Shown here: piece by piece, positions 22,501-50,499 of the stretch
Layout of the letters: every line of letters begins with the position of its first letter
Position numbering within the stretch: position 1 is the stretch's first letter
Assembly (NCBI GenBank): GCA_965223155.1
Contig: CBDCVR010000013.1
Location: 768,001-832,000, forward strand
Direction of reading: 5' to 3'
DNA: 64,000 bases
From: Candidatus Multivoradales bacterium
GTDB taxonomy: Bacteria; Acidobacteriota; Thermoanaerobaculia; Multivoradales; JAHEKO01
Translations under genes and position numbers: made by a program
The notes under the pieces: model-generated
Seen by the model: only the letters and a program-made list of their open reading frames with translations
What the model was told of the DNA's origin: nothing
The model's database searches: none

Positions 22501-22618
22501 CCTCGGGGAGATAGGCCAGCGGCAGGCGGGCGAGCGCGATCCCGCCCACCACCAGGATGCTGATCAGGATCATCGCGGTCGTGATCGGCCGCGTGACCGC
22601 GAGCTTGGGTAGCTGCAT
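19526..22618 (-). CDS. RND efflux permease subunit
   Basis: 1030 aa; GMLVDNAVVVLE, GIVVNNGIVL, RLRPILMT. Confidence 0.95.
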   Translation of the reverse strand: MQLPKLAVTRPITTAMILISILVVGGIALARLPLAYLPEVDAPFIGVQIPFPNSNPLQIEKEIVKPVEEVLATIPGVKTLNGQADPDQAQIFLEFEWGKELDIVRMQVSEKIDQVKGELPAGIGEIVIFSFNTNDIPVVQARVSAKGVDLSESYDLIEARILNRLRRVPGVARVTLDGVAPREISIDLILSRVREHSVDVGGLIQQLQGASSNLVLGQVDQGGLRFTARAVGQFQSVAEVENLVIDERGLRLRDIAEVTYEEPPIPHGRFLDRQFAVGLDVFKESTANTVDVVRNVMAVIQDDINNDPLLAGVSLFVWEDQGKEIMGGLTGLLTAGVIGAFLAIFSLYFFLRRIDSTFIVSLSIPFSILAACGVMYFLGKSLNVLSMMGLMLAVGMLVDNAVVVLESIDRLHRTESNREKSALEGARSVAVAVSASTLTTLIVFLPLIIGARTDLTTWLKEIGIAITIALACSLFSSLTLIPLMSAHFLGRKKAKEIKSIAWLEGKYAATLAWTLKHRWKTGALLLLVIGLGIVPFATGMIKSAIFSGTINERLVLRYEFADHTYKSEAREAVEYVEPFLWDRKEDFEVASLYSFYMENRAETTMVLARKNMTDDEVKELQKKVREELPELAGVRLYFDDDADTGGDNTFFAVKLFGQDSSLLERYATEALRRIETLDGMQDLRTSFRDTQREVRVKIDREKAARNGLDAQDMADIFSFTLGAMRLPRFNAGEREVETWLALRIEDRENLDDLKKLQVGGGANGTPIYLGDIAAFEIVPRARQIERENRKVRVAVRGTYEGDDWKDTQDEIAALMDAFDLPPGYSWSWNDRIIEQSEQSAQMGVNFLLALVLVYLVMASLFESLAQPFAILFSILCAIPGVAWLLAITGTEFNLMAQIGLLILMGIVVNNGIVLLDHVNQLRKTGLEPDEAIIQAGRERLRPILMTAATTIIGLLPLAVRGPATSGIFYYPLARTVIGGLMSSAFLTLLVLPYVNVLIESFVAWLKRIWRASESVGKGSAVSVEDPVASA

Positions 22619-25867
<3,249 letters not shown>

Positions 25868-25872
25868 CGACG

Positions 25873-30202: not shown

Positions 30203-30293
30203 GCATGCCGACCGTCCGGCTCGGACGCAGCGTCGAGGGTCGCAACTGTTGAAATGCCATTGACTTTGCAGCGCCGGAGCGTAGGCTGGCTCG

Positions 30294-32459: not shown

Positions 32460-32473
32460 CCTCTAGGAACCTC

Positions 32474-35400
32474 ATGCCTCGACACCTACGCTGGAGCCGC
32501 TGGGCGGCGACGCTCGTCCTCCTGGCCCTGGCGACCGCCGCCAGCGCCCAGGAACGGAGGATTCCATTCGACCACGTTGGCCTGCAGGAGGGGCTGCCTC
32601 ACAGCACCGTCAACGCCATCGTCCAGGACGATCTCGGCTTTGTCTGGTTGGGGACCCAGGACGGCCTCGTGCACTGGGACGGCAACGCGTTCACCGCCTA
32701 CCGCCACGAGCCGGGCAACCAGGGATCGCTTTCCAATAACTGGGTCTGGACCATCCTCAAGGACAGCACGGGCCGCCTCTGGATCGGCACCAATGAAGGC
32801 GGCCTCAATCTCTGGGAGCCGGCGACTCGCAGCTTCGTCCAGTACCGAAACGACGAGATGGACCCCGCTTCGCTCTCCAACAACCGGGTCCGGGCCCTAC
32901 TGGAGGACCGAAATGGGCGCATCTGGGTCGGGACCGAATCCGGCCTCAACGTCTTCGATCCGATAGCCGGCCGTTTCGACCGCTATTTCCACGATCCGTC
33001 GAATCCGGACAGCCTGTCGCACAATCAGATCCGCACGATCTTCCAGGACCGCCGCGGCTCGATCTGGGTCGGCACCAACGGAGGCGGCCTGGATCGCTTG
33101 GATGACGCCGGTGGCGTCTTTACGCACTTCCGGCACGATCCGGACGATCCGGCCAGCCTGAGCCGCGACCGAGTCCGGGTGGTCTTCGAGGACCGGTCCG
33201 ACCAGCTCTGGGTCGGAACCTATGAAGGCGGCCTCAACCGCTTCGACCCCGCAACCGGCGCCTTCACTCGCTTCGCCGAGGAGCCGGGCCGGAGCGGCAG
33301 CCTGCTGGGCAACCGGGTGACTTCGATTCACCAGGACTCGAACGGCGTCCTCTGGGTCGGCACCTTCAGCGGCCTCAACGAATGGCTCCCCGAGCGTCAG
33401 GCGTTCACCCGCTACGCTCACAACCCGGCCGATCCCGCCAGCCTGAGCGACAACCGGGTCATGACCATCTTTCAAGATCGGGGCGGCGTGCTCTGGGTCG
33501 GCACTCAGGGCGGGATCAGCAAGTGGAACGCCGTAACCGGATCGTTTTCCGGCTTCCGGCACGACCCGGCTGCCCCCGATCGCAGCCTGATCAGCAACAC
33601 GGTCAACGCCCTGGCCGAAGACGCTCAAGGCCGGCTTTGGATCGGCACCTACGAGGGCCTGGACGTTCTCGATCGCGGCACCGGCACCGTGACCCACCAC
33701 CTGCGCGACGACGCCGTGCCCGGAAGGCTGCGCGACGACCGGGTCATGTCGCTCCACGTCGATCGCGGAGGCACGCTCTGGGTCGGCACCTTCGAAGGGG
33801 GATTGCACCGGCGACGAGCGGACGGCCGTTTCCGCAACTACCGGCACGATCCCGACGACCCAGCCAGCCTCAGCCGGGACGCGGTAACCGCGATCTTGGA
33901 AGATAGTCAGGGGGTGGTCTGGGCCGGCACCTACGGCGGCGGCCTCAACCGAGTCAAGGCAGACGGCTCAGGATTCATCCGCTACCGCAACGATCCCGAC
34001 AACGTCACGAGCATCGGCAACGACAAGGTGCTGGCTCTCCTCGAGGCCAGCGACGGGGCCCTCTGGGTCGGCACGGACGGCGGCGGACTCAGCCGGCTGG
34101 ACCGGCGCCAGGGCACCTTCACCCGGTACCGCAGCAACTCGGATGCGGAGTCCTCCCTGGGGGCCGACACGATCTTCTCGCTCGCGGAGAGCTCAGACGG
34201 GACCCTGTGGATCGGCACCCAGGGCGGCGGCCTCAGCCGGTGGCTCAAGCAGGACCGCATCGCAAACCGGGTCCGTTTCAAGACCTACACCACCAGCGAC
34301 GGTCTGCCCAACGACGTCGTCTACGCGATCCTGGAGGACGAGAGCGGCTCGCTCTGGCTGAGCACCAACGACGGCCTGGCCCGTTTTGACCCCGCCACCG
34401 AGACCTTCCGCAAGTACGGCACGACCCACGGGCTGCTCAGCACCGAGTTCAACTTCGGCGCCTTTCTCAAGACTCGTGACGGCGAGATGCTCTTCGGCAG
34501 CGACCAGGGCGTGAACTTCTTCCAGCCGTCCCGGATCCACGCCAACGACCACGCTCCTCCGGTGGTCCTGACCTCGTTTCTCAAGTTCAACCAGGAGGAA
34601 CGGCTCGAGATCCCGACGCCCGAGCTGCGCGAGCTCTACCTGACCCACAAGGACTACGTCGTGTCCTTCGAGTTCGCCGCCCTCGATTTCTCGGCTCCCG
34701 AGCGCAACAGCTACGCCTACATGCTGGAGGGGTTTGATACCGGTTGGAACGAAGTCGGGAACCTGAACCGCGCCACCTACACCAATCTGGACCCCGGCAG
34801 GTACACCTTCCGGGTCAAGGCCAGCAACAACGACGATCTCTGGAACGAGAACGGGGTGGCGCTGGCGATCAACGTGGCACCCCCTCCGTGGCGAGCCTGG
34901 TGGGCCTATCTGGCCTACCTGGCCGCGGCCCTGGCGGTCCTGCTGGCCGTGGTTCGCCGGCAGTCCGCGATCCGTGTGCGTGAAATCCAGCAACGCCGTG
35001 AGCTGGAGGACCAGGTCGCCCTGCGCACCACTGAGCTCGCCGAGCGAAACCAGGAGTTGGAAAGCGCCATCGACCGGCTCGAGCACGCCAGCGTCACCGA
35101 CGCGCTGACCGGGCTCCGCAATCGCCGCTACCTGGTCAACAACATCGACGCCGATCTGGCGCTGGTGGACCGGCACCACGAGAACCTGAAGCGCCGGCCC
35201 AAGGTCGCGGCTGAGGGACCGCCACCGGACTTTCTCTTCCTGCTGTTCGACCTGGATGGATTCAAGCAGGTCAACGACACCTACGGGCACGCCGCCGGCG
35301 ATCTCATCCTGCTCCAAGTGACCGAGATCCTGCGCGGCGCCTGCCGCGACGCCGACACCGTCATCCGTTGGGGCGGAGACGAATTCCTGATCGTCGCGCG

Positions 35401-35785
35401 CAACGCCACTCCCAAGACCGCCGAAGACCTGGCCGAGCGGATCCGCGCCGGCATCGCCGGCCATCGTTTCGAGCTGGGTCCCGAGACCTCGGTCGAGCTG
35501 AGCTGCTCGATCGGCTTCGCCTCGTATCCCTTTCTGCGAAAGTTCCCGCGTGCGTTCACCTGGGAACAGGTGGTTGCCGTCGCCGACCGCGGTTTGTACT
35601 TCGCCAAGAAAAGCTGCCGCAATGCTTGGGCCGGAATCTCCGAGAACCACCGGGTGGACACCGTCCACCCGTCCTCGCTGCTCCACCAGATTAACCACGA
35701 GTTGGAGCAGTTGGTCCAGCTCGAAGTCGTCGAGCTCAGGACCTCGATCGAAGACGAGGCGGAGCTCGTCTGGGGCTGGACCTAG
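32474..35785 (+). CDS. Periplasmic beta-propeller (Reg_prop)/Y_Y_Y sensor diguanylate cyclase
   Basis: Signal peptide; many D..G.LWVGT..GGL repeats; YAYMLEG..W...ATYTNLDPGRYTF; TM; RDAD I-site and RWGGDEF. Confidence 0.93.
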   Translation: MPRHLRWSRWAATLVLLALATAASAQERRIPFDHVGLQEGLPHSTVNAIVQDDLGFVWLGTQDGLVHWDGNAFTAYRHEPGNQGSLSNNWVWTILKDSTGRLWIGTNEGGLNLWEPATRSFVQYRNDEMDPASLSNNRVRALLEDRNGRIWVGTESGLNVFDPIAGRFDRYFHDPSNPDSLSHNQIRTIFQDRRGSIWVGTNGGGLDRLDDAGGVFTHFRHDPDDPASLSRDRVRVVFEDRSDQLWVGTYEGGLNRFDPATGAFTRFAEEPGRSGSLLGNRVTSIHQDSNGVLWVGTFSGLNEWLPERQAFTRYAHNPADPASLSDNRVMTIFQDRGGVLWVGTQGGISKWNAVTGSFSGFRHDPAAPDRSLISNTVNALAEDAQGRLWIGTYEGLDVLDRGTGTVTHHLRDDAVPGRLRDDRVMSLHVDRGGTLWVGTFEGGLHRRRADGRFRNYRHDPDDPASLSRDAVTAILEDSQGVVWAGTYGGGLNRVKADGSGFIRYRNDPDNVTSIGNDKVLALLEASDGALWVGTDGGGLSRLDRRQGTFTRYRSNSDAESSLGADTIFSLAESSDGTLWIGTQGGGLSRWLKQDRIANRVRFKTYTTSDGLPNDVVYAILEDESGSLWLSTNDGLARFDPATETFRKYGTTHGLLSTEFNFGAFLKTRDGEMLFGSDQGVNFFQPSRIHANDHAPPVVLTSFLKFNQEERLEIPTPELRELYLTHKDYVVSFEFAALDFSAPERNSYAYMLEGFDTGWNEVGNLNRATYTNLDPGRYTFRVKASNNDDLWNENGVALAINVAPPPWRAWWAYLAYLAAALAVLLAVVRRQSAIRVREIQQRRELEDQVALRTTELAERNQELESAIDRLEHASVTDALTGLRNRRYLVNNIDADLALVDRHHENLKRRPKVAAEGPPPDFLFLLFDLDGFKQVNDTYGHAAGDLILLQVTEILRGACRDADTVIRWGGDEFLIVARNATPKTAEDLAERIRAGIAGHRFELGPETSVELSCSIGFASYPFLRKFPRAFTWEQVVAVADRGLYFAKKSCRNAWAGISENHRVDTVHPSSLLHQINHELEQLVQLEVVELRTSIEDEAELVWGWT

Positions 35786-36708
35786 CCCCCGGTCTCTTTA
35801 CCGCCAATCCGGTCGACAATGGCTCCGACCGCCTCGGGCAGCGCGTCGAGACTGTCGGGCAGCACGAGCTCCACGGCGTCAACGGCGGGGGCGGCTCCAG
35901 TGAAGAGATCGAAGGCCGCCGCCCTGAGCCATTGGGCAAAGAGACTCGATGCCGTGAGGTTGGCGAGAATCCGGGTCACGGCCTCACTTGGCGCCAGCGG
36001 CCGGACCGTGGGCGCCGACACGTCGGGCCTGCGTCGCGGAAAGACGATCGCGCCGAGCGGCGCGCTGGCCGGTTCGAGCGGCTGCTGGTCCGGCCCCATC
36101 TTGAGCTGGGGAAATCGCGGCAAGACCTTCAGCCCCGGCCCGGCCCCCGCCAGAATCACCTGATCGTCGGCCAACCTCGTGTGCCCCGCAGCTTCGGCAA
36201 CACGCGCGAATGTGGACTTCCCCGCCCCGCTCTCGCCGGCTGCGGCGACCACCCGATCCCCGATCTGAAAGGCCGAGGCGTGGAGGCTCCAGCGCCCACA
36301 GGCGGCCAGGGCCAGGGTCAGACCGGGGCCGAGCGCGGCGTACCGAGCCTGATCCTCGGACCGGGGGCCCTCGATCGTGAGATCCACCGCAGGAGCCGAG
36401 AAGCGGCATCGGAGCCACTGCCGACCCTCGAGCTCCAGCCTGGCCCCCTCGTCGCCTGTGTGGATCAGGTACCGGGTCCTCCGGCCGGCCAGCCAGTTAC
36501 GCCCCGCGAGGGTCTCCAGCATGGACCGGTGCTTCCCCGCCGGAGCGTCCGGCTTCGAAAACTCGACGCCGAACAGCGTGAACGGCGTCAGCTCGCGCAC
36601 CGTGCCTGTGGCGCTCACGGTCAGTCCGGCCAGGCCGTAGTGGCGCCAGCGCGGCTCTCCGTCTTCCTGAAACCAGAGACGTACCGTCTCTCCGTCCGGC
36701 ACCTTCAT
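35782..36708 (-). CDS. HPr kinase-like P-loop protein (lasso-cluster kinase type)
   Basis: LHASA, GESGAGKST, LADD, PRFPQLK; ATG at 36708 overlaps cyclase TGA (TGATG). Confidence 0.8.
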   Translation of the reverse strand: MKVPDGETVRLWFQEDGEPRWRHYGLAGLTVSATGTVRELTPFTLFGVEFSKPDAPAGKHRSMLETLAGRNWLAGRRTRYLIHTGDEGARLELEGRQWLRCRFSAPAVDLTIEGPRSEDQARYAALGPGLTLALAACGRWSLHASAFQIGDRVVAAAGESGAGKSTFARVAEAAGHTRLADDQVILAGAGPGLKVLPRFPQLKMGPDQQPLEPASAPLGAIVFPRRRPDVSAPTVRPLAPSEAVTRILANLTASSLFAQWLRAAAFDLFTGAAPAVDAVELVLPDSLDALPEAVGAIVDRIGGKETGG

Positions 36709-38378
36709 CAAGCCAGCTCCCAACCGTGACGGCCGCGCCAGAGCTCGAAGGACGCGCATCGCCAGAGCAGCGCCTTTTCCGCCTCCGACGAACGGGGCCC
36801 AACGGCCTCGACGGCTTCAGGGCGGACGAACTCCGGCCAAACCGCCCGCCTCCGGCCCAGCAGCTCGGCAATCGGTCCGGACTCGCGTTCGAAGACTCCC
36901 CGATCGAAGAGCGGCGAAAGATTGGCGGTGGTCTGGTTCCGGACCACCGCGTCCGGCAAGCGGCTGGTCATCGCCCGGCGCATCAGATCCTTGGCGCAAC
37001 CTGGCCTGGCGATCAGAAAGCTGGGGAGCGCCAGCAGGAGCTCGACGAGATCCGGGTCGAGATACGGCGAGACTACACGGACCCCGGCGTGGGACGCGTG
37101 CACCGCCTCGATCGGAAGTCCCCTACGCTCGAGATCCAGATAGGGCCGCACCAAGCGCGCGCGCGCGCCGGTGTCCTGCCCATCCTCCGGTGCCCGAGCC
37201 GATCCCGAGCTCGCGGCCACCCCCGGGCGGAGCCAAGCCCGGCTCGCGCGCGATGCAACCCGAGCCATGCGCCCGGCCGGACTTCCGATGCGGCCGATGG
37301 CTCCCAGCGCCTGACGCGGCCCCCGGCCACGGGCGATCTGGAGGATCGCGGCGGCGGCGCGGGCGAAGTGTCCGTGGCGCACGAGGTCCCGTACCAGGAG
37401 CTGCTGTACGCCGCGGTAGAGAGCGTCGGCCGGTCCCCCGTTCCAAAGCACGCCGACGCCCGCTTCGGCCGCCCTCCGGTACAGGCGCTGCTTGAGGCCC
37501 CGATAGGGATTCTCCTCGGGATGGCCCGGTTCGAGGCCGTAGGCGTCGGGGTCGGCAAGGGGCCAGCAGTCATCTCCGGAGACGCGCACGGCCGTGAGCC
37601 TAAGGCTCTCCACGACCGCGTCGATACGCTCCCTTTCGTCGCACGTCCTCAGCTCGTCGAAGATCCAGGAAGCAGCCACCGGCCGGCGCCCGGCCTGCTC
37701 AGCGTACTCGGCGGGCGCGGCAGGTTCGAACCGGGCCGCGGCGGCCGCCGCCAGGGCTCCTGAGTCGATTCCCCCGCTCAGCATCAGGCCAAGCTCACCG
37801 TCCGGCGGCGTCCAGCGCGCCGCCGCCGACTCGAGGGCCTTCCAGAGGCGCTCGGCGGCCTCTTCCGGCGAAAGGTCGCTCAGCGCGGCCGAGTCGGGCG
37901 GCTGGCCGCACGTCTCCAGCCGGCCGGGCTCGTCCGCCAGACCGCTCGGATCCGGCCGTGGGCCAGGCGGCGATCCGACGGGAAGCCGCACCCGGCAGCC
38001 GGCCGGCACCTCGAAGACTCCTCGGAAATGCGTCCGGCCCACCGTGGGGCTCTCGAGCGCGAAGAAACGAGCGAGCTGACCTCGATCCAAACCCGGCCGC
38101 ACCGGCAGGGTCGCCAGCAAGTCACTCAGGACCGACGACGAATAGAGCCGGCCCCCGGCCCGCGCGTAGTAGAGCCCCTCGGCACCGCTAGCGCCTCGCG
38201 CCAGGGTAACTCCTTCACCGTCCGGGTCCAGCCGAGTCCCGGTTTCGGAAAGAGCGCCGGGTTCCCGAAGCCGCCGCCGCCCGGGATGCGGCTCGGAGGC
38301 GGACGTGTCGACCCCGAAGCCATTCCTGGCCTGCATCCGGGTACCGGTGGCGAGGTCGAACACCGCCGAGCGCGACAT
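36708..38378 (-). CDS. Asparagine-synthetase-like protein, probable lasso peptide macrolactam cyclase
   Basis: LMLSGGIDSG PP-loop, WNGGPAD, SPYLDPDLVE..LALP, KDLMRRAM..RLP; no N-terminal catalytic Cys; directly after the precursor. Confidence 0.8.
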   Translation of the reverse strand: MSRSAVFDLATGTRMQARNGFGVDTSASEPHPGRRRLREPGALSETGTRLDPDGEGVTLARGASGAEGLYYARAGGRLYSSSVLSDLLATLPVRPGLDRGQLARFFALESPTVGRTHFRGVFEVPAGCRVRLPVGSPPGPRPDPSGLADEPGRLETCGQPPDSAALSDLSPEEAAERLWKALESAAARWTPPDGELGLMLSGGIDSGALAAAAAARFEPAAPAEYAEQAGRRPVAASWIFDELRTCDERERIDAVVESLRLTAVRVSGDDCWPLADPDAYGLEPGHPEENPYRGLKQRLYRRAAEAGVGVLWNGGPADALYRGVQQLLVRDLVRHGHFARAAAAILQIARGRGPRQALGAIGRIGSPAGRMARVASRASRAWLRPGVAASSGSARAPEDGQDTGARARLVRPYLDLERRGLPIEAVHASHAGVRVVSPYLDPDLVELLLALPSFLIARPGCAKDLMRRAMTSRLPDAVVRNQTTANLSPLFDRGVFERESGPIAELLGRRRAVWPEFVRPEAVEAVGPRSSEAEKALLWRCASFELWRGRHGWELA

Positions 38379-38437
38379 CGTGCCCGAGCCTACCTTGCGC
38401 CTAGGTCCGACCGGACCTGTCGCGACCTGCCAGCCCG

Positions 38438-38644
38438 CTAGCCCTGGAACGGAGGGTTGAAGGCAAACGGATTGCCCGAGTCACCGACGCCGGGAGAGCC
38501 GCCCAAGGTCAGGCTGGCCAGCGAGCCGTAGCGCACGAGAGTCGGCTGGCGATAGGGCCTGCGGCCTTCGAGCGGCCGAAGTTCCGCCCCAGTCCGGTGA
38601 GCCGATTGCCGGCGCACCCGCGAACGCTCGCTGGCCTTGTCCAT
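38438..38644 (-). CDS. Lasso peptide precursor (68 aa; predicted core GGSPGVGDSGNPFAFNPPFQG)
   Basis: MDKASE...PYRQPTLVRYGSLASLTL|GGSPGVGD...; YxxPxL leader motif, Thr at -2, Gly1, Asp8; ATG overlaps the giant gene's TGA. Confidence 0.85.
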   Translation of the reverse strand: MDKASERSRVRRQSAHRTGAELRPLEGRRPYRQPTLVRYGSLASLTLGGSPGVGDSGNPFAFNPPFQG

Positions 38645-41600
38645 CAGGGCACGATTGTCATCGTCGGGTCGCCGAGAAGCGTCCATCCGAGAATAACATC
38701 CAAGCGACCCGGATCGCTCTCGGCCAGATCGCGCTTGGCCTCGACCACCGCGCCGCCAAGGCGAGCACCGGGGCTCGCCAGGCGGTCGAACACGCGACGT
38801 CCCAAACGCTGCTCGGAGAGGGCCTCGGTCAAGGTCGCGGCACCCAAAACCGCCGCCGCGCCCGTATCGGCCTCCAGCAGAAGCCGGTTGCCCAAGGTCT
38901 CGTAGGTCGGCAGCACGTGGTAGGTGTTCCAGCAGCCCCACTGGGTCACGACGGTCGGCTTGCCGCGGTTCTCGAGCCGATCGACGTCCGACGAGCGGAA
39001 GAGGCCGCTGAAGCTCCAGACGGTCAGGCCGGAGTGCCCAAAGTAGCTGGTGATTGCCGGGCCCTGGCCGATCTCGCGCACGAGCGCCTCGCGGGCATCT
39101 GTAAGCGGCATCTCGTCCAGATAGACCCGCTCGAGGGACCAATCGGAACCCAGGAGCGCCCCCATGGCGTCGCTCTTCTGTCCGAACGAGAACCCAGTCG
39201 GCGCGTCCCGCTTGTCCGCGGCTAGAACCGCGGTCAGCTCGCCGCCGTCGTAGAGCAGCGTCTTGTCGATCACCGCGGCCAGCTCGTCGAGAGTCCGCAC
39301 CGGCCAGCGGCCCACGGCCACCTCGGGGATGAGGTCCCCGTCCACGTCGCCGTACAGGGGATCCACCGGCGCGTAGCGGACGATCGCGTCGGTCTGGAGA
39401 TACGGAGTCGGGACGAAGCTCATCGAGCCGACACCCAGATGATCGAAGTAGTCGTAGGTGTCGCCGCCCACCAGCAGCAGATACCGTGTCCCGAGGCTCT
39501 TGTACGCGTCGCGGACGTAGCTTCGAATCGCCTCCGGATCCACAATGCCATTACTGTAGGCAGCGTAGACGTCGTCCACGTCGACGGTCCGGACCGCCAA
39601 GCCTTCACCGCGGCGACGGCTCTCCCAGCGGCCCAGGCCGTCCAGGAAGTCGGCGTGCGCGATCACGAGCACGTCGGCGGGCGCGTCGCCGAGATCGCTG
39701 GCGGCGCGAGCGGCCTCGATCGCCGGAACGCGGATCGAGCCGGCTCCGACCGTCCAGTACTCGGCATCGGCGGCACCCAGTCCCGAGAACGCAGCAGCGT
39801 AGCCTCCCAAACCGTCGGCCACCGTCGCCGCCTCGAGACGCGCCAGCGTGCCGGCGGTTCGTCCGTAGGCCACGACGTCGGTCGAAGCAAAGCCGCGCAC
39901 CAGGAAACTCCGGCCGCCGGACGCGAAGCTCAAAGCGTCGGCCCGGGCCACGAAGTCTCTCGGGTACCTGACCGTCAGGTGGTCGTAGTTAACAAGATCG
40001 AACTGGGCGCCCGTGTCATGCGGCAATAGCAGCCTCATCGTGTTGCCGGCCGGCGCCAGGAGGGCGTCGCTCAAGACCGCCGAGATCTCGGGTTGGTAGA
40101 GCCCGTCGAACCATTCCTCGGCAACCAGGCCGCCGTTGACCTCGACGACCAGATGGTGGTCGGGTGCCTGCGGCAGGTTCGTGACGCCGTAGGCCGACAC
40201 CTCGAGGGCCACGTCGGCGGCTCCGGGCAGCCAGTTGTCGAGGTCAAACGTCACCGACGTCTCGACAGGCTTCGTAGTCGCGAGCAGGCGCCGGTCGTAC
40301 CACGGATCACCGGTCGGCGAGGCGAAGTTGTACTGGCGCTCGACCTCGACCTTGTGGGTCTCGAGGTAGTAGGGCTCAGCGGCGCCCGCGCCGGAGTACG
40401 GCTCGATCTCCGCCCGCAGCGCCCGGTCCCGATTCACGCTCAGTCGATAGACGTTGGTCCGGGTGTAGAGGCTGTCGTCGACCGGCTCGCCCACGAACTC
40501 GAGAGACGAGCCGGGACCGAACGGACCCTCTCCGGACACCCAGAAGGGGACCGGCTCACCGCCGCTGGCCAGGCTCAGCCAGTCTCCTCGAATTCCCTGG
40601 AGGCGCACTCCCGCGGCTGCCAGATCTTCGTAGGTGACCCGGTAGATACCCGCCTCGGAAACCTTGAAAGTCGCCAGCTCGTCACCACGGCCCGGCCGGC
40701 CCGAATTCGAGCCACTCGAGCCTCCGTTCGAGCGCAACGCCCTGCCGCCGAACTCGATCGCGCCTCCGAGATCGGCCGAACCGGCCTCGGGCAGCACGCC
40801 GGCGTTCCGCCGCGCGGCCTTGCCCGCTTTCCGGCGCGCCTTGGCGTCCCGGATCTTGGCCCAGGCAACAGGTTGCGCGGAAACCACCTCCGACCCGGCG
40901 GCTTCATCCGCGTAGAACGGACCGTGGTGTCGAATGACGCCGTTGATATCCACGTCCTCCAGAAGGAAGGTATCGCCTGCGACTCCGGCGGCCGAGAACT
41001 CGTACACCTGCGGCTCGAGCGAGTCCACGACGTGGGACGGGATGAGCTCGTCGTTCAAGCGGCGCAAGCCGTCATCTTCGAGCGCGTAAAGATTGAAGCC
41101 GAGATTCCCGACCTCGGTCGAGGTCATCCAGCGGAAGTCCACCGATCCGCGTCCGTGGGCTTCGAAGTAGGCCAGAGTCACCGGCGTCGTGGTCACGCCC
41201 CCGTTCCAGAAGCCGAAGTCCTGATCGGTGACGTTCGAAGAGACCAGAGTCACCGGCTGGACCCCGCCGGTCCCGGCTTGGGTGGTCTGGACGAAGCCGT
41301 CGACCAAGGTGCCCTCGCTGTCGGCGTACACCAGATAGTCGCCCGGCGGCAGGTTGTCGAAGCTGTAGGTACCGTCGATCGCGGTCACGGTGGTCGCGAC
41401 CAGGGGATCGTCCGGATCGATGACTCCGTCGCCGTCCAGATCCTGATAGAGGTACACGGTTACCGAGGGCACCACCGGCTCGAGTCCGGTTCCCGCGAAG
41501 GAACCGTTGGCATCGCCGTCCTCGAACACGGTTCCGGAGATCGAGAGCGCGCCGGTCGGAAGGACGAAGCCGAAGTCCGCGGTGAAGTTGGACGAGTTCA

Positions 41601-44600
41601 AGGTCAGGGCGTACGGGTTGGTCTGATTGTTGTCGTCCTGGCCGGGGTTCGGACCCAGAACGGTAGCGGTCAGGCCAGCAGTCACGCCGTATTCATCGGT
41701 GAGCCGCGCGATGTAGTCGCCGGAGGGAATGCCCTCGCAGTAGTACTCGCCGGCCTCATCCGTCGTCTCGGTCCGGATCAGGTTGTCGGTACCGTCGATA
41801 TCCAGGATGCCGTTGCCGTTGACATCGTGCCAGCATTCCAGTGTCACGCCCGAGATCGGCGGCTCGCCAACCTGATAGACGCCGTCCAGATTGGTATCGA
41901 ACCACACCAGATTGCCAATCGAGCCCAGCCCGGCCTCGGGGCCGTAGCCAAAGTCGGCGGTTGCCGTAGAGCCCCCAGCGACCGAGACCGAGGTTTCCTC
42001 GTCGCAAGTCGAGCAGGTCCCGGACTCGTCGGGATCGCCCGTCTGCTGCAAGCCCACCAGAACGCTGTCGACGTCGGTGACCTCTACGGTGTAGGTGCCG
42101 TCGGGCACGCCGGTGAACTCGTAGTCGCCGTTTGCATCGGTGGTCGTCGTGGCGATGATGTTGCCCGAGCCATCGACCAGGTTGACGGTCACGCCGACGA
42201 TGCCGCCCTCGCTTCCACCTTCGACGCCGTCGTTGTCGCCATCGTTCCAGATCGTGCCCTCGATCGTATTGACGACGCCCCCGTCGTAGCCGAAGTCCAG
42301 CGTCGGCACCACGTCGCCATCGGCCAGGGTCAGTAGGTAGGTATCGTCACCGCCGTTGTTGGTCGGCGTGGTCGTGTAGCCGAGCGCGGCAATGCCGGCC
42401 GAGTCCACGGTCACGATGTAGTCGCCGGGCAGGAGGCCCGTGGCCAGCCAGGTCCCATCCGGGTTGGTGGTCACCGTGCAACCGGTCGGACACGACGGAC
42501 CCTGGATCAAGATGTCGATGCCGCCGATACCGACCTCGCCTTCGTCCTGGATGCCATCGCCGTCGGCGTCGTACCAGACGGTGTCGCCGATGGTGGCCGT
42601 GCCCGCCGTCGGCACGTAGCCGAAGTCGGCGTCGTTGTAGTCCTCGCCGTCCGAAAGCGCAATCGCTGTCGTCGTGTCGCCGCCGGTCGAGGAGGTCAGG
42701 CCGGTGGGCGCGGTCGGAACGTCCACGTAGTAGATGCCCGAGTCCAGCCCGCCAAAATCGTACTGACCGTTGGCGTTGGTGGTCGTCGAGCCCACGAAGA
42801 CGTCATCGGCGGTGCCGACGATGCCGTCCGGACCGGCGTCATAAAGATCCACCTGCACCCCGGAGATACCGCTCTCGTCGGGGCCCTGGACGCCGTCGCC
42901 ATTGGTGTCCAGAAAGACCGTGTCGCCGATCGAGGCCGTGCCGGTGTCCTGGACATAGCCGAAGTCCACGTCGTCAATGTCGGAGCCGGCCAGGGTCACG
43001 TCCAGCGCGTCGAGTCCGCTGGTCAAGGTGTAGCCGTCGAGCACGTTGTCGGTATCGGTCACCACCACCGTGTAGTCACCGTCGGGAAGATCCGGAAAGC
43101 TGTAGTCCCCGTTCGAATCGGTGACAGTGGTCGCGATGACCGCGCCGGTGTCGTCCAGGAGCTCGAGGGTGACGCCGCCGATTCCGGCTTCGGTGCCGTC
43201 CTGGATCCCGTCGGTGTCGGTATCGTTGAACACGGTTCCGAAAACGTCGGCAAGAGACGTGTCCTGGTAGCCGTACTCGATTCCGGTCACGCTCTCGCCC
43301 GCGTTCAGGGTGACCGCAGTCGTGGTCGTACCGTCGCAGACCGTGCAGGTTCCAGACTCGTCGGGGTCGCCGGTCTGGGAGCCGCTGGGCGCCGCGCCCA
43401 CCGTCACCACGTAGTTGTCGGGAGCCAGGTCACCGAAGGAGTAGCTGCCATCAGCCGCGGTAGTGGTCTGGGCCACAAAGTTGGGGCTCGACGGATCGCA
43501 GGGACTCGCGGGATCCGTACAGAGATAGATCGGCACGCCCTCGATTCCCGCCTCTTCCGGGTCGTGGACGCCATCGCCGTCGGCGTCGCTCCACACGGTT
43601 CCGGACAGAGTGTCCGGCTCGTTGTAGCCGAAGCTGGGCGTGCCGCCGTCGGACGGAGCGTTGAGGACGTCTCCGCCCGAGACCACGACGTCCTCGACGC
43701 CTCCGGTCGCGGTGGTCTCGGTAAAGCCGTCGAGCTCGCTCGCCGTATCCGTGACCTGAAGCTGGTAGACGCCGTCGGTCACGCCGGTGAACGACACTTC
43801 ACCGTTCTCATCCGTGATCGCGGTCGCGATCGTGGTGTCGTCGGCAGCGTTGGCCCCACCGCAAATGCCGTCGGCGCCGCAGTCGACCAGATCCACGGTG
43901 ACACCCGGGATCATCTCTTCGCCGGGATCCAGCACGCCGTCTCCATCCGCGTCATACCAGACCGCGTCGCTGACCTCGTAGCTCGTTGACGTATCGAAGC
44001 CAAAGTCGACGTCACTGATGATGTCGTTCTCCAGTACCGAGATCGGATCGCTCTGAGTAGGACTGGTCTCGCAGCCGGCTACCGGGTCGGGACTGCAAAA
44101 CGCCACCAGCTCGGGGTCGGTCGTGTCTACGACGACGATGTACTCACCGGGCGGCACGTCGGTCAGAAGATAGGAGCCGTCCGGTCCGGTGACCGCGGTG
44201 ATCGGCTGCCCGCCGGAGTCAAGGACCGGCGTGCCGTCGGGATTCAAGAGCTGCACGGTTACACCGGCGATGCCCACCTCTCCGGGATCCTGAATCCCAT
44301 CCTGATCGGCGTCGCTCCACACGGTCCCTTCGATGACCGCGGTACCTGAATCCGGGACGTACCCGAAGTCTGCCGTTTCCGTTTCTCCGGCCGCCAGCGT
44401 CAGGGTGCCCGAGTTGCCCGCCACGTTGCCCGGCGATTCTTCCAAGCCATCCAGGTCGCCACCGGTCAGTTCGGCCGGTTCGACCTGGGTCTGATAGTCG
44501 CCCGCCGACAGATCCGGGAAGCTGTAGTCGCCGGCGGCGTCGGTCACCGCGGTGGCAATGGCGGTCGAGGCGTCGCAGACGGGCTCGGAAGCCTCACAGA

Positions 44601-46908
44601 GATAGACCGTAACGCCATCGATCCCGGGCTCGCCGATGTCATGGACACCGTCACCGTCGGTATCGAGCCAGACGGTCCCTTCGATCGCCGAACACGTGCT
44701 GCCGCCATTGCCGATCGTGTCCAGATTGTTGCCAGGATTCGGATCGTTGTTGTCGGCCGTGACATACGCCACGTTGTCAAATTCGCAAGCCCGCGCCACC
44801 GGATTGCCGGCGACGTCCCCGTCCGAGTCACTGTTGTTGGACGTATCCTGATCCGCCTCATCGGCGCTCACGGTGACCACATTGTCGAACGGTCCCGAGG
44901 CATCGATCGTCGCAATCACAGTGATCACTTCGCTAGCGCCGGACGCAAGGCTGGGAATCGTACAGGGCAAGGCACCGCAACTCGCGCTCGAGACGCTGGT
45001 GATCGTGAGATTGCTCGCGACGTCGGTGACCAGCACGTTCGTGGCCAGAGAGGGACCGTTGTTGGTCACCACCATCGAGTAGGTCACGGTCTGGCCGGAA
45101 ACGTAGGGGCCGGCGGTGATCAGGGTCTTGGTAACCGCGACGTCGGCCCCGACCGGATTGACGGCGTCGTCCGAGATCGGGTCAATCCCGGTCGCCGAGG
45201 CCTCGGCCGTGTTGGTCAGCTCGGTGATCGCCGGGTCCAGCGGATCGTCTACCAGAACCTGAAACGTCACGGTCAGAGTCTCGCCTGGAGCCAGCGTGAA
45301 ACCGTCTCCCGACTCGACCAGGCTCGGCGGTGTGCCGTCCACCAGGTCCATGTTCGTCCCACCCGGTACGTTGTCTTTGGTCGTCGTGCCCGAAGCACCG
45401 TGGGCTTCGATGACGATGTTGTCGAAGTAGACGTCTTCCGAAGAGCTGGTCGTACCCGACCGCAAGCGGATCACGGTGCTCGCATTCCCGGCCGTGATCG
45501 ACACCGACTCCGTCCCCGACTGGTTGTCGTCCTCCTCTGGACACACCTGGGTCCCGTCACGGCTGAACACCGTCGAGAACGTCCCTCCTCCATTGGTCGA
45601 GACCTGGACGTCCAGAAAATCGCTCGACTCCCAGCCGCTGCTGGTGTCGTTGCACTCCCAGGTGAAAGACAACGTGGCGCTGGTGTAGGCGCTCAGGTCT
45701 GCCGACCTGGAAGCCGTGCCTGACGAGCCACCGTTCATGAACACCGCATTGGACAGACCTCCGGGAGAGGTCGTCTCGATGCTCGAGCTATTGAACGTCC
45801 AGTTGCCCGACCAGCCGGTTCCTCCAGTGCCGTCGCCGCTCGAGAAGTCGTCGCTGATGGTGGCCGAGCTGTCCACCGGACCCGTCGCCGCCGTGCTCTG
45901 CGCCACGTAGGTGACCCCGGTCGGCAGCGTGTCGGTCACCACCACGTCGTTGACGTTACCGGGACCGCTGTTGGTCACCTCGATCGTGTAGGTGATCGTC
46001 TCCCCAGGCTGAACCGAACCACTTGGACTCGCCGTCTTGACGATCGACAGGGCCGGTGGGACGTCCTCGACGCAAAGCGCGAACCCGGACAGACGAACCG
46101 CGTGTCCGTTGCTCTCCCCCGTACCGCTCTCGTTGGTCGCATCGTCCGGACCGTTGTTGTATGTGAAGTTGAGCGTGTCGAACGCCGCACCGCTGGACAC
46201 GGTCAACGTTCCGGCCGCATCCCCTGGAGAGAGGTTCCCATTGACGCCGGGCGCCACAATCGCCGTCGCCGTCTGACCCGAAACGGTCATGTTGCTGCCG
46301 CCGCTCAAGGTCAGGGGAACATTGCTGCCCCCGTCCGAGGCCGAAAAGGTCAGCTGATCCTGAAACGACTCTTCGGGCTCCGGCGCCTGAGCCCCGAACC
46401 CGACGTCATCGATGTCACCAAGCGAGAAGTCGTTCAGGATCACCGACTTCGAGAACGTGAAATCGAACCCGATGGTGTCGCTCACCGAGTTGACGCTGGC
46501 CATCTTCACAGTCAGGAAGCCCGAACCGAACGCCCCGTTGGTCTCGGTCTTCGTCGTCGTCGGATTGTCGCAGCCATTCGATAGCGCCGCCGGACACGAG
46601 AAGTTGTCGTCGTAGTTCATCCCGTCCGGATCCTGCAGCGTCACCGTCACGTCCAGCGTGTTCGGGTTGCCGTAGGCGTCCGTGTAGGCGACGGTGTAGA
46701 TCTCCGACGCCCCAGTCGTGTTGTTAGCGATCGTCCACTCGTTGCCCGTACCCGGAGACGTTGACCAGTCGAAGGTCGCCGCCGCCGTCCCCGACGGGCA
46801 GCTCTGGGCTACCGCTTGGGCCGGAGCCAGCAACCAGCCGAGAGCAAGAGCCGGCGCCAGGCGCAGCGCCAGGCCCGGCCATCGCCTCATCGACCAAAGG
46901 TCCGTCAT
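38644..46908 (-). CDS. Giant secreted surface protein: N-terminal domain, DUF11 repeats, 10 SdrD-B-like repeats, C-terminal C25 (gingipain/PorU-like) cysteine peptidase
   Basis: Signal peptide (AQAVA); DUF11 motifs; ten G.VW.D.D.DG..D..E.GI.GV repeats; TPVTLAYF; LLLVGGD, VAVGRWP, YFGHSG, WGCWN, LLGDP. Confidence 0.9.
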   Translation of the reverse strand: MTDLWSMRRWPGLALRLAPALALGWLLAPAQAVAQSCPSGTAAATFDWSTSPGTGNEWTIANNTTGASEIYTVAYTDAYGNPNTLDVTVTLQDPDGMNYDDNFSCPAALSNGCDNPTTTKTETNGAFGSGFLTVKMASVNSVSDTIGFDFTFSKSVILNDFSLGDIDDVGFGAQAPEPEESFQDQLTFSASDGGSNVPLTLSGGSNMTVSGQTATAIVAPGVNGNLSPGDAAGTLTVSSGAAFDTLNFTYNNGPDDATNESGTGESNGHAVRLSGFALCVEDVPPALSIVKTASPSGSVQPGETITYTIEVTNSGPGNVNDVVVTDTLPTGVTYVAQSTAATGPVDSSATISDDFSSGDGTGGTGWSGNWTFNSSSIETTSPGGLSNAVFMNGGSSGTASRSADLSAYTSATLSFTWECNDTSSGWESSDFLDVQVSTNGGGTFSTVFSRDGTQVCPEEDDNQSGTESVSITAGNASTVIRLRSGTTSSSEDVYFDNIVIEAHGASGTTTKDNVPGGTNMDLVDGTPPSLVESGDGFTLAPGETLTVTFQVLVDDPLDPAITELTNTAEASATGIDPISDDAVNPVGADVAVTKTLITAGPYVSGQTVTYSMVVTNNGPSLATNVLVTDVASNLTITSVSSASCGALPCTIPSLASGASEVITVIATIDASGPFDNVVTVSADEADQDTSNNSDSDGDVAGNPVARACEFDNVAYVTADNNDPNPGNNLDTIGNGGSTCSAIEGTVWLDTDGDGVHDIGEPGIDGVTVYLCEASEPVCDASTAIATAVTDAAGDYSFPDLSAGDYQTQVEPAELTGGDLDGLEESPGNVAGNSGTLTLAAGETETADFGYVPDSGTAVIEGTVWSDADQDGIQDPGEVGIAGVTVQLLNPDGTPVLDSGGQPITAVTGPDGSYLLTDVPPGEYIVVVDTTDPELVAFCSPDPVAGCETSPTQSDPISVLENDIISDVDFGFDTSTSYEVSDAVWYDADGDGVLDPGEEMIPGVTVDLVDCGADGICGGANAADDTTIATAITDENGEVSFTGVTDGVYQLQVTDTASELDGFTETTATGGVEDVVVSGGDVLNAPSDGGTPSFGYNEPDTLSGTVWSDADGDGVHDPEEAGIEGVPIYLCTDPASPCDPSSPNFVAQTTTAADGSYSFGDLAPDNYVVTVGAAPSGSQTGDPDESGTCTVCDGTTTTAVTLNAGESVTGIEYGYQDTSLADVFGTVFNDTDTDGIQDGTEAGIGGVTLELLDDTGAVIATTVTDSNGDYSFPDLPDGDYTVVVTDTDNVLDGYTLTSGLDALDVTLAGSDIDDVDFGYVQDTGTASIGDTVFLDTNGDGVQGPDESGISGVQVDLYDAGPDGIVGTADDVFVGSTTTNANGQYDFGGLDSGIYYVDVPTAPTGLTSSTGGDTTTAIALSDGEDYNDADFGYVPTAGTATIGDTVWYDADGDGIQDEGEVGIGGIDILIQGPSCPTGCTVTTNPDGTWLATGLLPGDYIVTVDSAGIAALGYTTTPTNNGGDDTYLLTLADGDVVPTLDFGYDGGVVNTIEGTIWNDGDNDGVEGGSEGGIVGVTVNLVDGSGNIIATTTTDANGDYEFTGVPDGTYTVEVTDVDSVLVGLQQTGDPDESGTCSTCDEETSVSVAGGSTATADFGYGPEAGLGSIGNLVWFDTNLDGVYQVGEPPISGVTLECWHDVNGNGILDIDGTDNLIRTETTDEAGEYYCEGIPSGDYIARLTDEYGVTAGLTATVLGPNPGQDDNNQTNPYALTLNSSNFTADFGFVLPTGALSISGTVFEDGDANGSFAGTGLEPVVPSVTVYLYQDLDGDGVIDPDDPLVATTVTAIDGTYSFDNLPPGDYLVYADSEGTLVDGFVQTTQAGTGGVQPVTLVSSNVTDQDFGFWNGGVTTTPVTLAYFEAHGRGSVDFRWMTSTEVGNLGFNLYALEDDGLRRLNDELIPSHVVDSLEPQVYEFSAAGVAGDTFLLEDVDINGVIRHHGPFYADEAAGSEVVSAQPVAWAKIRDAKARRKAGKAARRNAGVLPEAGSADLGGAIEFGGRALRSNGGSSGSNSGRPGRGDELATFKVSEAGIYRVTYEDLAAAGVRLQGIRGDWLSLASGGEPVPFWVSGEGPFGPGSSLEFVGEPVDDSLYTRTNVYRLSVNRDRALRAEIEPYSGAGAAEPYYLETHKVEVERQYNFASPTGDPWYDRRLLATTKPVETSVTFDLDNWLPGAADVALEVSAYGVTNLPQAPDHHLVVEVNGGLVAEEWFDGLYQPEISAVLSDALLAPAGNTMRLLLPHDTGAQFDLVNYDHLTVRYPRDFVARADALSFASGGRSFLVRGFASTDVVAYGRTAGTLARLEAATVADGLGGYAAAFSGLGAADAEYWTVGAGSIRVPAIEAARAASDLGDAPADVLVIAHADFLDGLGRWESRRRGEGLAVRTVDVDDVYAAYSNGIVDPEAIRSYVRDAYKSLGTRYLLLVGGDTYDYFDHLGVGSMSFVPTPYLQTDAIVRYAPVDPLYGDVDGDLIPEVAVGRWPVRTLDELAAVIDKTLLYDGGELTAVLAADKRDAPTGFSFGQKSDAMGALLGSDWSLERVYLDEMPLTDAREALVREIGQGPAITSYFGHSGLTVWSFSGLFRSSDVDRLENRGKPTVVTQWGCWNTYHVLPTYETLGNRLLLEADTGAAAVLGAATLTEALSEQRLGRRVFDRLASPGARLGGAVVEAKRDLAESDPGRLDVILGWTLLGDPTMTIVP
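45152..45960. repeat. Copy 1 of a near-identical direct repeat (partner at about 47164-47972, offset 2012 bp)
   Basis: By-eye alignment shows about ten substitutions across the central ~750 bp. Confidence 0.9.
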
Positions 46909-48944
46909 TGGATAGTCGCCGTCACAGTGAGAACGACGGTCGCTCCGGCACTAAGATTCGGGATCACACAAGGAAGGCTGGCGCAGCCTCCGCCCGACAC
47001 CGAGTCGATCGTGAGGTTGGTCGGAGCGTCATAAACGGTCACGTTGGTCGCGTCCGCCGGGCCGGCGTTACTGACAATCAACTCGTAGGTAATCGTCTGG
47101 CTTGAGGAATAGGGCCCGGCCGTAACGAGGTTCTTGACGACGCTGACGTCGGCATCCGTCGCCACCGGATTGACGGCATCGTCGGAGATCGGATCGATCC
47201 CGGTCGCCGAGGCCTCGGCCGTGTTGGTCAGCTCGGTGATCGCCGGGTCCAGCGGATCGTCTACCAGGACCTGAAACGTCACGGTCAGAGTCTCGCCGGG
47301 AGCCAGCGCGAAATCGTCTCCCGACTCGACCAGGCTCGGCGGTGTGCCGTCCACCAGGTCCGCGTTCGTCCCACCCGGTACGTTGTCCTTGGTCGTCGTG
47401 CCCGAAGCACCGTGGGCTTCGATGACGATGTTGTCGAAGTAGACGTCTTCCGAAGAGCTGGTCGTACCCGACCGCAAGCGGATCACGGTGCTCGCATTCC
47501 CGGCCGAGATCGACACCGACTCCGTCCCCGACTGGTTGTCGTCCTCCTCTGGACACACCTGGGTCCCGTCACGGCTGAACACCGTCGAGAACGTCCCTCC
47601 TCCATTGGTCGAGACCTGGACGTCCAGAAAATCGCTCGACTCCCAGCCGCTGCTGGTGTCGTTGCACTCCCAGGTGAAAGACAACGTGGCGCTCGTGTAG
47701 GCGCTCAGGTCTGCCGACCTGGAAGCCGTGCCTGACGAGCCACCGTTCATGAACACCGCATTGGACAGACCTCCGGGAGAGGTCGTCTCGATGCTCGAGC
47801 TATTGAACGTCCAGTTGCCCGACCAGCCGGTTCCTCCAGTGCCGTCGCCGCTCGAGAAGTCGTCGCTGATGGTGGCCGAGCTGTCCACCGGACCCGTCGC
47901 CACCGTGCTCTGCGCCACGTAGGTGACCCCGGTCGGCAGCGTGTCGGTCACCACTACGTCGTTGACGTTGCCGGGGCCGCTGTTGATTACCTCGATCGTG
48001 TACGTGATCGTCTCACCAGGCTGAACCAAACCGCTCGGACCCGCCGTCTTGACGATCGATAGGGCCGGTGGGGTGTCCTGGACGCAAAGCACCTGAAACC
48101 CGGAGATGCGGACCGCGTGCCCGTTACTCTCCCCCGTGCCGCTCGAGTCCGCCGTGTCGTCCGGACCATTCGAATACTCGAAGCTGAACGTGTCGAAAAG
48201 GCCCGTCGATGACGCCGTCAGTGTGCCCGCGGCGTCGTCGGGAGTCAGGTTGCCATTGACCCCCGCCACCACGATCGCCGTCGCCGTCTGTCCCGAGAGC
48301 GATATGTTCGAGCCGCCCGAAAGGGTCAAAGGAACGTTCGCACCACCGGCCGAGGCCGTCAGTGTTACCTGATCCTGAAAGGACTCCTCTGGCTCTGGCG
48401 CCTGCGCGCCGACGCCCACGTCGTCGATGTCTCCGATCGTGAAGTCGCTCATCGACACCAGCTTCGAGAAGGAGAAGTCGAAACCTACCGTGTCCGTCAC
48501 CGAGTTCACACTCGCCATGCCCACGGTCAAAAAGCCCGAACCGTACGACCCGTTTGTCTGGGTGTCAAAGCCTGGGTCGCAGCCGTTCGACAAGGCCGCC
48601 GGACACGCGAAGTTGGTGTCGAAATTCATCGCATCCGGATCCTGGAGCGCCACCGTGACGTCCAGCGTGTTCGGATTGCCGTAGGCGTCGGTGTAGCCGA
48701 TCGAATAGACCTGCGAGTTGCCGTCCGTATCGTTACTCGACAGCCACTCGTTGCCCGTACCAGGGGTACTCGACCAGTCGAACGTCGCCGCCGCCGTGCC
48801 CGACGGGCAGCCTTGGGCTACGACATCTGAGCCCGGGACCAGTCCTAGTACGGCCCCAAGCAGGAGGCTCGAGACCACACGCCGCCGCCGGCCCGAGGAG
48901 CCGGGCGGATTCTTGGGAGGTACACCGGGGGAAAGTTCGTTCAT
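46905..48944 (-). CDS. Secreted DUF11 protein (679 aa), paralog of the N-terminal region of the giant protein
   Basis: Signal peptide ending VVAQ; same N-domain and DUF11 with insert; last DUF11 truncated at ATIQ*; ATGA overlap with the giant gene; start MNELS fits the upstream promoter. Confidence 0.88.
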   Translation of the reverse strand: MNELSPGVPPKNPPGSSGRRRRVVSSLLLGAVLGLVPGSDVVAQGCPSGTAAATFDWSSTPGTGNEWLSSNDTDGNSQVYSIGYTDAYGNPNTLDVTVALQDPDAMNFDTNFACPAALSNGCDPGFDTQTNGSYGSGFLTVGMASVNSVTDTVGFDFSFSKLVSMSDFTIGDIDDVGVGAQAPEPEESFQDQVTLTASAGGANVPLTLSGGSNISLSGQTATAIVVAGVNGNLTPDDAAGTLTASSTGLFDTFSFEYSNGPDDTADSSGTGESNGHAVRISGFQVLCVQDTPPALSIVKTAGPSGLVQPGETITYTIEVINSGPGNVNDVVVTDTLPTGVTYVAQSTVATGPVDSSATISDDFSSGDGTGGTGWSGNWTFNSSSIETTSPGGLSNAVFMNGGSSGTASRSADLSAYTSATLSFTWECNDTSSGWESSDFLDVQVSTNGGGTFSTVFSRDGTQVCPEEDDNQSGTESVSISAGNASTVIRLRSGTTSSSEDVYFDNIVIEAHGASGTTTKDNVPGGTNADLVDGTPPSLVESGDDFALAPGETLTVTFQVLVDDPLDPAITELTNTAEASATGIDPISDDAVNPVATDADVSVVKNLVTAGPYSSSQTITYELIVSNAGPADATNVTVYDAPTNLTIDSVSGGGCASLPCVIPNLSAGATVVLTVTATIQ
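47164..47972. repeat. Copy 2 of the near-identical direct repeat
   Basis: Matches 45152-45960. Confidence 0.9.
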
Positions 48945-48999
48945 CGGAGATCGCCTGGGTCGGCTTATGGTCGGGCCGACCGAACTATACCTGTAATCA

Positions 49000-49015
49000 T
49001 GCACCTCAAGTGCCA
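49000..49015 (-). promoter_or_regulatory. Candidate sigma54 (-24/-12) promoter TGGCACTTGAGGTGCA
   Basis: GG-N10-GC spacing with TGGCAC and TGCA, 56 bp upstream of the ATG at 48944. Confidence 0.65.
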
Positions 49016-49102
49016 CTCGGGCCCGCAACGTCAAGCTCTTCTATTGCAAGAGTTGCTGCGCAACCCGGGTCGGCCCCGCTACGCCGGCCGGCACTCAGCG
49101 CC

Positions 49103-50477: not shown

Positions 50478-50499
50478 CAGCTCTCTGAGATCGGGCCGC

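Follow-up and report, generated by a model that had tools for sequence, protein, structure and literature searches.

A minimal lasso-peptide cassette with a putative peptide kinase lies beside a giant peptidase C25 repeat protein gene in a Candidatus Multivoradales genome

We analyzed a stretch of 64,000 nucleotides (nt) from a Candidatus Multivoradales bacterium (assembly GCA_965223155.1, contig CBDCVR010000013.1, positions 768,001 to 832,000), hereafter the window, which contains an array of five minus-strand open reading frames (ORFs) that closes with the genes for a putative lasso peptide. In the order of their transcription, and in window positions, the array begins with a truncated tandem paralog (46905..48946) of the N-terminal ~640 amino acids (aa) encoded by the next gene. 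That gene (38644..46908) encodes a giant secreted repeat protein of 2754 aa, which features a signal peptide, a duplicated N-terminal module, DUF11, 10 SdrD_B stretches, and a C-terminal peptidase C25 domain that is gingipain/PorU-like. The remaining genes encode a 68-aa lasso precursor (A; 38438..38644), which consists of a 47-aa leader and a 21-aa core, a divergent Asn-synthetase-like lasso cyclase of 556 aa (C; 36708..38378), and a peptide kinase with an HprK/phosphoenolpyruvate carboxykinase (PEPCK) fold, which comprises 308 aa when counted from its ATG at 36708 (K; 35782..36708). The original prediction, made from the letters of this DNA, had described five minus-strand ORFs joined by three start/stop overlaps and one 59-nt gap, and reading the sequence directly we found all of them present. 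The stop of the truncated paralog overlaps the ATG of the giant gene (ATGA at 46908-46905), the stop and start of the giant and precursor genes overlap by one base (TGATG at 38646-38642), the precursor stop (38438) is separated by 59 nt from the cyclase ATG (38378), and the kinase ATG overlaps the cyclase stop (TGATG at 36710-36706). These overlaps are what suggests that translation may be coupled across the array. The same prediction had treated the five genes as one functional system; the first gene, however, is a truncated copy of the N-terminus of the giant, and the array is better read as two adjacent modules on the same strand, which are the giant gene with its duplicate and an A-C-K lasso cassette.

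Several of these genes offer more than one start. The longest ORF of the kinase gene (35782-36759) encodes 325 aa from its first ATG, and the gene as called in the source begins at 36708 and yields 308 aa. The precursor gene has an alternative start, a GTG at 38617. The longest ORF of the truncated paralog (46905-49034) encodes 709 aa from a TTG at 49034, and its in-frame ATG at 48944 precedes an Arg-rich and then hydrophobic stretch that resembles a signal peptide. The more plausible start is this ATG (48944-48946), rather than the TTG at 49034 or position 49015, which had been proposed as the end of the array and is not supported as a start.

The 68-aa precursor, MDKASERSRVRRQSAHRTGAELRPLEGRRPYRQPTLVRYGSLASLTLGGSPGVGDSGNPFAFNPPFQG, matches the NCBIfam lasso leader model NF033521 at residues 31-50 with 22.6 bits, which is above the cutoff of 19. 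With the core starting at Gly48 as position 1, the leader places Tyr31 at -17, Pro34 at -14, Leu36 at -12, and Thr46 at -2, while the core has Ser50 at position 3 and Asp55 at position 8 and ends in Gly. A lasso precursor is required to have Gly, Ala, Ser, or Cys at position 1 and Asp or Glu at one of positions 7-9, and this precursor has Gly1 and Asp8 together with a YxxPxL motif from -17 to -12 and Thr-2. According to Duan et al. (2023, PMC10368454), recognition by B1 requires YxxPxL at -17 to -12, Thr-2 usually serves as the element recognized for processing, and Gly1 cyclizes with Asp8. Across all six frames, the window has a single instance of the composite leader and core motif (38480-38554), and at least one match was present in 3 of 200 shuffled sequences. 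The cyclase gene downstream of the precursor encodes a protein that matches PF00733 at 76 bits (Pfam) and retains an intact PP-loop (SGGIDS). Two of its 15 matches exceed 40% identity, and the closest of these relatives belongs to the same length class, with 555 aa.

The product of the third cassette gene belongs to a large family, as an exhaustive HMMER search returned 4321 representatives with E<=1e-3, including 494 with E<=1e-10; they are mostly ~300 aa long, and the best is 44% identical to the window kinase. An AlphaFold2 (AF2) model from a 54-sequence alignment reached a predicted local distance difference test (pLDDT) score of 88.9 and a predicted template modeling (pTM) score of 0.88, and it features a predicted all-beta N-terminal domain and a predicted P-loop C-terminal domain. 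Foldseek matched this model to PEP carboxykinase (E = 2.6e-6) and to HprK/P (3tqf and 1kkl; E ~3e-5, with a TM score of up to 0.57 on the target). The 54 sequences all share H160, G178, G180, K181, S182, D198, and D199, with G175 near-invariant; the HprK/PEPCK fold is combined with the motif H-x14-G-x2-G-x-G-K-S-x15-D-D. The spacing of this motif is identical to that reported for the lasso-peptide kinase BsfK (H148-G163-G166-G168-K169-S170-D186-D187), in which these residues were shown to be important by mutagenesis (PMC10368454). The original prediction of a lasso cassette that encodes precursor, cyclase, and HPr-kinase-like protein is thus supported, and this cassette directly abuts the C25 giant gene on the same strand, as had also been proposed.

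Two types of lasso kinase were compared for the residue that the window kinase might modify. Kinases of the paeninodin/ThcoK/SyanK/pseudomycoidin type share with the window kinase a place in the HPr-kinase superfamily and, as reported, phosphorylate the C-terminal Ser of the linear precursor (PMC8498205). The window precursor ends in Gly, which excludes C-terminal-Ser phosphorylation of the paeninodin type. For BsfK, the substrate is reported to end in Asp, and the core Ser3 is phosphorylated when the C-terminus is not Ser (PMC10368454). The window core supplies such an acceptor in its own Ser3, and given the C-terminal Gly, our best guess by analogy is ring phosphorylation of the Bsf type at core Ser3. 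The resemblance to the bsf cluster of Bradymonas sediminis, as described in that report, extends to an HprK-like kinase with the H...G..G.GKS...DD motif and its spacing, a YxxPxL leader motif at -17 to -12, Gly1 and Asp8 as the pair for the ring, a core position 3 that bears a hydroxyl group, and a C-terminus other than Ser. The two systems differ at position -2, which is Ile in the bsf precursor and Thr in the window precursor. In addition, the bsf cluster is reported to encode B1, B2, an ABC transporter, and a nucleotidyltransferase (PMC10368454), whereas the window cassette has none of these.

The original prediction had noted no B1, B2, or ABC exporter nearby, and this held in every frame of the 64-kb window using Pfam, NCBIfam, and our own profiles. 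No PqqD, Transglut_core3, or ABC transporter domain was found by Pfam in the 148 ORFs of at least 60 aa at 28-58 kb, or in the 150 ORFs of at least 72 aa outside that interval. Among 29 alternative-frame ORFs at 35.2-39.1 kb, NCBIfam revealed no B1, B2, or ABC exporter. When PqqD and B2 profiles built from proteins of related loci were searched against 972 six-frame segments of at least 30 aa, the best match (E = 0.012) lay inside an alanine racemase gene. Thus, the window contains neither B1 (PF05402, free-standing or fused) nor B2 (PF13471), both of which are used to define a lasso cluster. We also considered whether a RiPP recognition element (RRE)/PqqD domain or a B2 domain is concealed in the kinase or the cyclase, which was rejected because profile-profile comparisons with hhalign gave probabilities of at most 0.3%. 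An RRE within the N-terminal domain of the kinase was likewise rejected, as this domain is predicted to be all-beta and not a winged helix. The sole efflux system of the window, which comprises two tandem AcrB-type resistance-nodulation-division (RND) transporters and an HlyD-type membrane-fusion protein (19529-27060, minus strand), is located ~9 kb from the cassette.

We also examined related loci in other genomes. A scan of genome contigs with a 10-sequence kinase alignment yielded nine loci, of which seven are true kinase loci; the other two, L006 and L009, had matched falsely within genes for ABC ATPases and were rejected. Within 8 kb of the matches there are 650 ORFs of at least 60 aa, of which 124 were chosen greedily and scanned with Pfam, and extra small ORFs of L001 and L008 were scanned with NCBIfam. 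An Asn-synthase gene is present in four of the seven kinase loci (L001, L002, L004, and L008), and all four of these also have a PqqD gene, with B2 in two of them (L002 and L004); L008 ends ~400 nt past its PqqD gene. An NTP_transf_5 nucleotidyltransferase is encoded in six of the seven. These observations suggest that kinase-type lasso loci, taken as a wider family, commonly have B genes. Clusters of the paeninodin type possess B1/B2, mostly together with D and N genes; L002 and L004 do likewise, and the window cassette does not. In L002, the candidate precursor has a C-terminal Ser. Two HprK-like genes each are present in three of the four kinase-type lasso loci (L001, 5237-10192; L004, 8477-10771; L008, 9983-11737); the second of these in L001 seems to be split or truncated (184 aa). 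The kinases of the seven loci are distant from the window kinase (37-50 bits by BLASTP), and therefore this comparison describes the wider family and not the immediate lineage. In a quick tree, the window kinase falls into an 11-row clade of metagenomic representatives with a Shimodaira-Hasegawa-like approximate likelihood ratio test (SH-aLRT) value of 97, and the kinases of the B-containing loci fall outside of it. A plasmid collection yielded four weak kinase matches and three weak C25 matches. In the two plasmid contexts inspected (H7 and H3), no lasso genes were annotated near the C25-like gene of a Herpetosiphon plasmid or around the HprK-like gene of Tistrella.

Based on these findings, we favor with moderate confidence the reading that the giant gene and its truncated duplicate lie beside a minimal cassette of A, C, and K genes that would make a phosphorylated lasso peptide of the class II type, with B1 and B2 probably encoded elsewhere and no dependence on C25 implied. 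The original prediction had offered trans-encoded B proteins or a non-canonical route, and this alternative stands; the leader retains Tyr-17, Pro-14, Leu-12, and Thr-2, which are the residues reported to be recognized by B1 and B2 (PMC10368454), and this retention makes trans-encoded B proteins the likeliest route. Lasso cyclization is ATP-dependent, occurs inside the cell, and needs a free core N-terminus. In the proposed sequence of events, the 68-aa precursor would first be translated, as suggested by its intact ORF and the right motifs. The HprK-like kinase would then phosphorylate the linear precursor, most likely at core Ser3 as BsfK does. The 47-aa leader would be cut off after Thr-2, most likely by B proteins from elsewhere in the genome, namely a B1 of the PqqD type and a B2 of the transglutaminase type. 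Finally, the Asn-synthetase-like cyclase, to judge from its family membership, would adenylate Asp8 and close a Gly1-Asp8 isopeptide ring around the tail.

The non-canonical route would be a B-independent pathway, in which a housekeeping protease removes the leader, or the cyclase accepts what the cell supplies, such that cyclase and kinase suffice. The absence of B1 and B2 from every frame of the window is consistent with such a pathway, as is the separation of the window kinase clade from the kinases of B-containing loci. Zyubko et al. (2019, PMC6993621) reported that pseudomycoidin forms in vivo without B1/B2 when produced in E. coli or B. subtilis, and the same paper remarks on a cluster of Stanieria cyanosphaera PCC 7437 that has the content of the window cassette, namely cyclase, precursor, and a PsmK homolog as the kinase without B genes in the cluster; a route of this kind was proposed for it. 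Thus, the B-less C-A-K layout is already in print, in the form of that remark, which places a glycosyltransferase nearby and mentions no giant protease. A literature search for lasso peptides and Stanieria returned just this paper and one on cyanobacterial plasmids. However, the pseudomycoidin cluster itself encodes B proteins, as PsmB2 is named in a later report (PMC10368454), which means that natural B-independence is established nowhere. Furthermore, the four B1/B2-recognition residues of the leader would be unexpected if it had long gone unread by a B protein. We therefore consider B-independence unlikely for the window cassette, and B proteins acting in trans continue to be the reading that we favor.

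Several observations weigh against the favored reading. It is the leader motifs alone that point to B1 and B2 in trans, with neither gene in the 64-kb window, and efficient phosphorylation by BsfK was reported to need its B1 (PMC10368454). The best NCBIfam match of the cyclase is the lasso cyclase model NF033535, at 84.7 bits far under the cutoff of 525, and its N-terminal domain is shorter than those of its relatives. The AF2 model of the cyclase, from six sequences, is of low confidence (pLDDT 65), with the N-terminal domain poorly modeled. The kinase has no Pfam match at E<=0.01, PF07475 included, and scored 17.1 bits against TIGR04352 and 15.9 bits against TIGR04355, which are curated HprK-related models with cutoffs of 200. 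A word-indexed protein search returned no homolog of the precursor besides itself, and conservation of the core cannot be shown as a result. Lastly, a weak terminator-like hairpin on the minus strand (38719-38702) lies within the last 80 nt of the giant gene, ~60 nt ahead of the precursor start, where it bears on the probable co-transcription of the cassette with the giant gene.

Some of these observations would also suit a decaying or silent remnant, left after the loss of B1, B2, and D or by an incomplete insertion behind the giant gene, from which no mature peptide would arise. B1, B2, an exporter, and the nucleotidyltransferase gene that is common in kinase-type clusters are all absent from the window, the precursor is an orphan, and the reduced N-terminal domain of the cyclase has no GATase Pfam match, unlike those of its two closest relatives. 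Nevertheless, all three ORFs of the cassette are intact, with tight start/stop overlaps, and the PP-loop, the kinase motif, and the leader and core motifs are preserved. The GC content at third codon positions (GC3) is 0.80-0.83 in the three genes, compared with 0.84-0.87 in sampled flanking housekeeping genes, and the closest cyclase relative is equally long. The cassette genes thus look live, judging from their intact ORFs and a GC3 near that of the flanks, and we regard a remnant as quite unlikely. A signal of horizontal transfer was rejected as well, since GC3 is just slightly under that of the flanks.

The cassette probably rides on the transcript of the giant gene, because the giant and precursor genes overlap at stop and start and because no promoter-like site was found at 35.5-39.5 kb in a scan that used the sigma-70 consensus only. 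Terminator-like sites numbered seven in the same interval, versus 1.6 expected from shuffled sequences. We also considered whether the 59 nt that separate the precursor and cyclase genes form a regulatory hairpin, which was rejected, as their folding is no better than that of shuffled sequences (z = 0.08). No RNA families were detected across the whole window.

The giant protein itself features a Peptidase_C25 domain at residues 2414-2751 (204 bits; Pfam PF01364, gathering score 23), which covers profile positions 2-373 of 374, together with SdrD_B at 467 bits in 10 stretches, DUF11 in two stretches, and an N-terminus that resembles a signal peptide. The full-length profile match relates its C-terminal domain to the gingipains and to the T9SS (type IX secretion system) sortase PorU. 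The giant nevertheless differs from PorU, as it scored 127.6 bits against the PorU equivalog model (NCBIfam NF033707), far under the cutoff of 420, and its C25 domain ends a 2754-aa DUF11/SdrD_B repeat protein. By sequence, the C25 domain weakly matches PorU (6za2) and Kgp (4rbm) in the Protein Data Bank (PDB) at E ~5e-4. In this weak alignment, the catalytic His aligns to that of PorU and Kgp, and the Cys is one column off the PorU Cys. A search of the N-terminal module in the Atlas gave just leads below 0.9, to streptococcal adhesin domains. Antisense to the SdrD_B repeats lies a 747-aa open frame (40093-42336, plus strand) that has no Pfam match and is most likely an artefact of repetitive GC-rich coding sequence.

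The gene upstream of the giant had been interpreted as a separate DUF11 adhesin, but its product aligns over 646 aa with residues 26-668 of the giant protein at 82% identity (BLASTP), which identifies it as a truncated tandem duplicate of the N-terminus of the giant. At the DNA level, the two copies of the N-terminal module are direct repeats (44905-46812 and 46911-48821) with an offset of ~2012 nt and 84.7% identity over 1899 aligned nt. The identity is mosaic, at 95-99% within ~750 nt in the center and 64-81% to either side, which suggests ongoing gene conversion between the tandem copies.

The original prediction had further proposed that the peptide regulates, inhibits, or is ligated by the C25 enzyme, a coupling for which the evidence comes down to adjacency. 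A related possibility is that the C25 domain replaces B2 as the leader peptidase. The one-base overlap of the giant and precursor genes, the lack of a promoter-like site between them and across the cassette in the sigma-70 scan, and the fact that C25 is a cysteine peptidase that retains its His are compatible with such a tie, whether the peptide is inhibitor, regulator, or substrate. However, the signal peptide of the giant indicates that the protease domain should act outside the cytoplasm, whereas cyclization takes place inside the cell. Moreover, among the 124 ORFs scanned, a Peptidase_C25 gene was found in none of the seven kinase loci, which are distant relatives, and the inspected plasmid-borne C25 relative has no lasso genes annotated nearby. 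A literature search returned no paper that combines a lasso peptide with peptidase C25. Taken together, these results make a functional tie between the peptide and the C25 giant very improbable. We give still more sparing credence to a bolder combination, which is a natural pathway free of an RRE and a leader peptidase, in which the reduced cyclase and a kinase whose all-beta N-terminal domain handles the leader would produce a ring-phosphorylated lasso peptide from the giant's transcript as a dedicated C25 modulator; we consider this extremely unlikely. A lasso peptide linked to a giant protease would be new, if true, and it is adjacency alone that points to it.

The cassette is significant because B1/B2 cleavage of the leader is regarded as indispensable in lasso biosynthesis and is something that genome-mining tools depend on, which leads B-less clusters to be systematically overlooked, as noted by Zyubko et al. 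(2019, PMC6993621). The locus offers a clean second example of the cyclase-precursor-kinase layout, with a Bsf-like core and a leader that carries the B1/B2 recognition code, and is consequently a good test case for whether B proteins serve in trans or are dispensable. A literature search found no paper that joins a lasso cyclase, a leader peptidase, and the phrase "encoded elsewhere". The sequences of the cassette are very isolated, with two cyclase relatives above 40% identity and no precursor relative found.

The cassette is flanked on one side by densely packed cyclic-di-GMP signaling genes on the plus strand (27281-35785), which encode a sigma-54 activator with GGDEF and GAF domains and a response regulator with PAS-GGDEF-EAL domains. 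A gene for a Reg_prop/Y_Y_Y-GGDEF protein, also on the plus strand, has a stop that overlaps the stop of the kinase gene head-on at 35782-35785. A PilZ protein is encoded further off (5993-7252), and it shares a Cds6_C NTF2-like C-terminal domain with the products of 49284-50540 and 50503-51696. The N-terminal modules of these three proteins are PilZ, a YkuD L,D-transpeptidase, and TPR, and the genes for the latter two Cds6_C proteins share the strand of the giant-gene array and are located just upstream of it.

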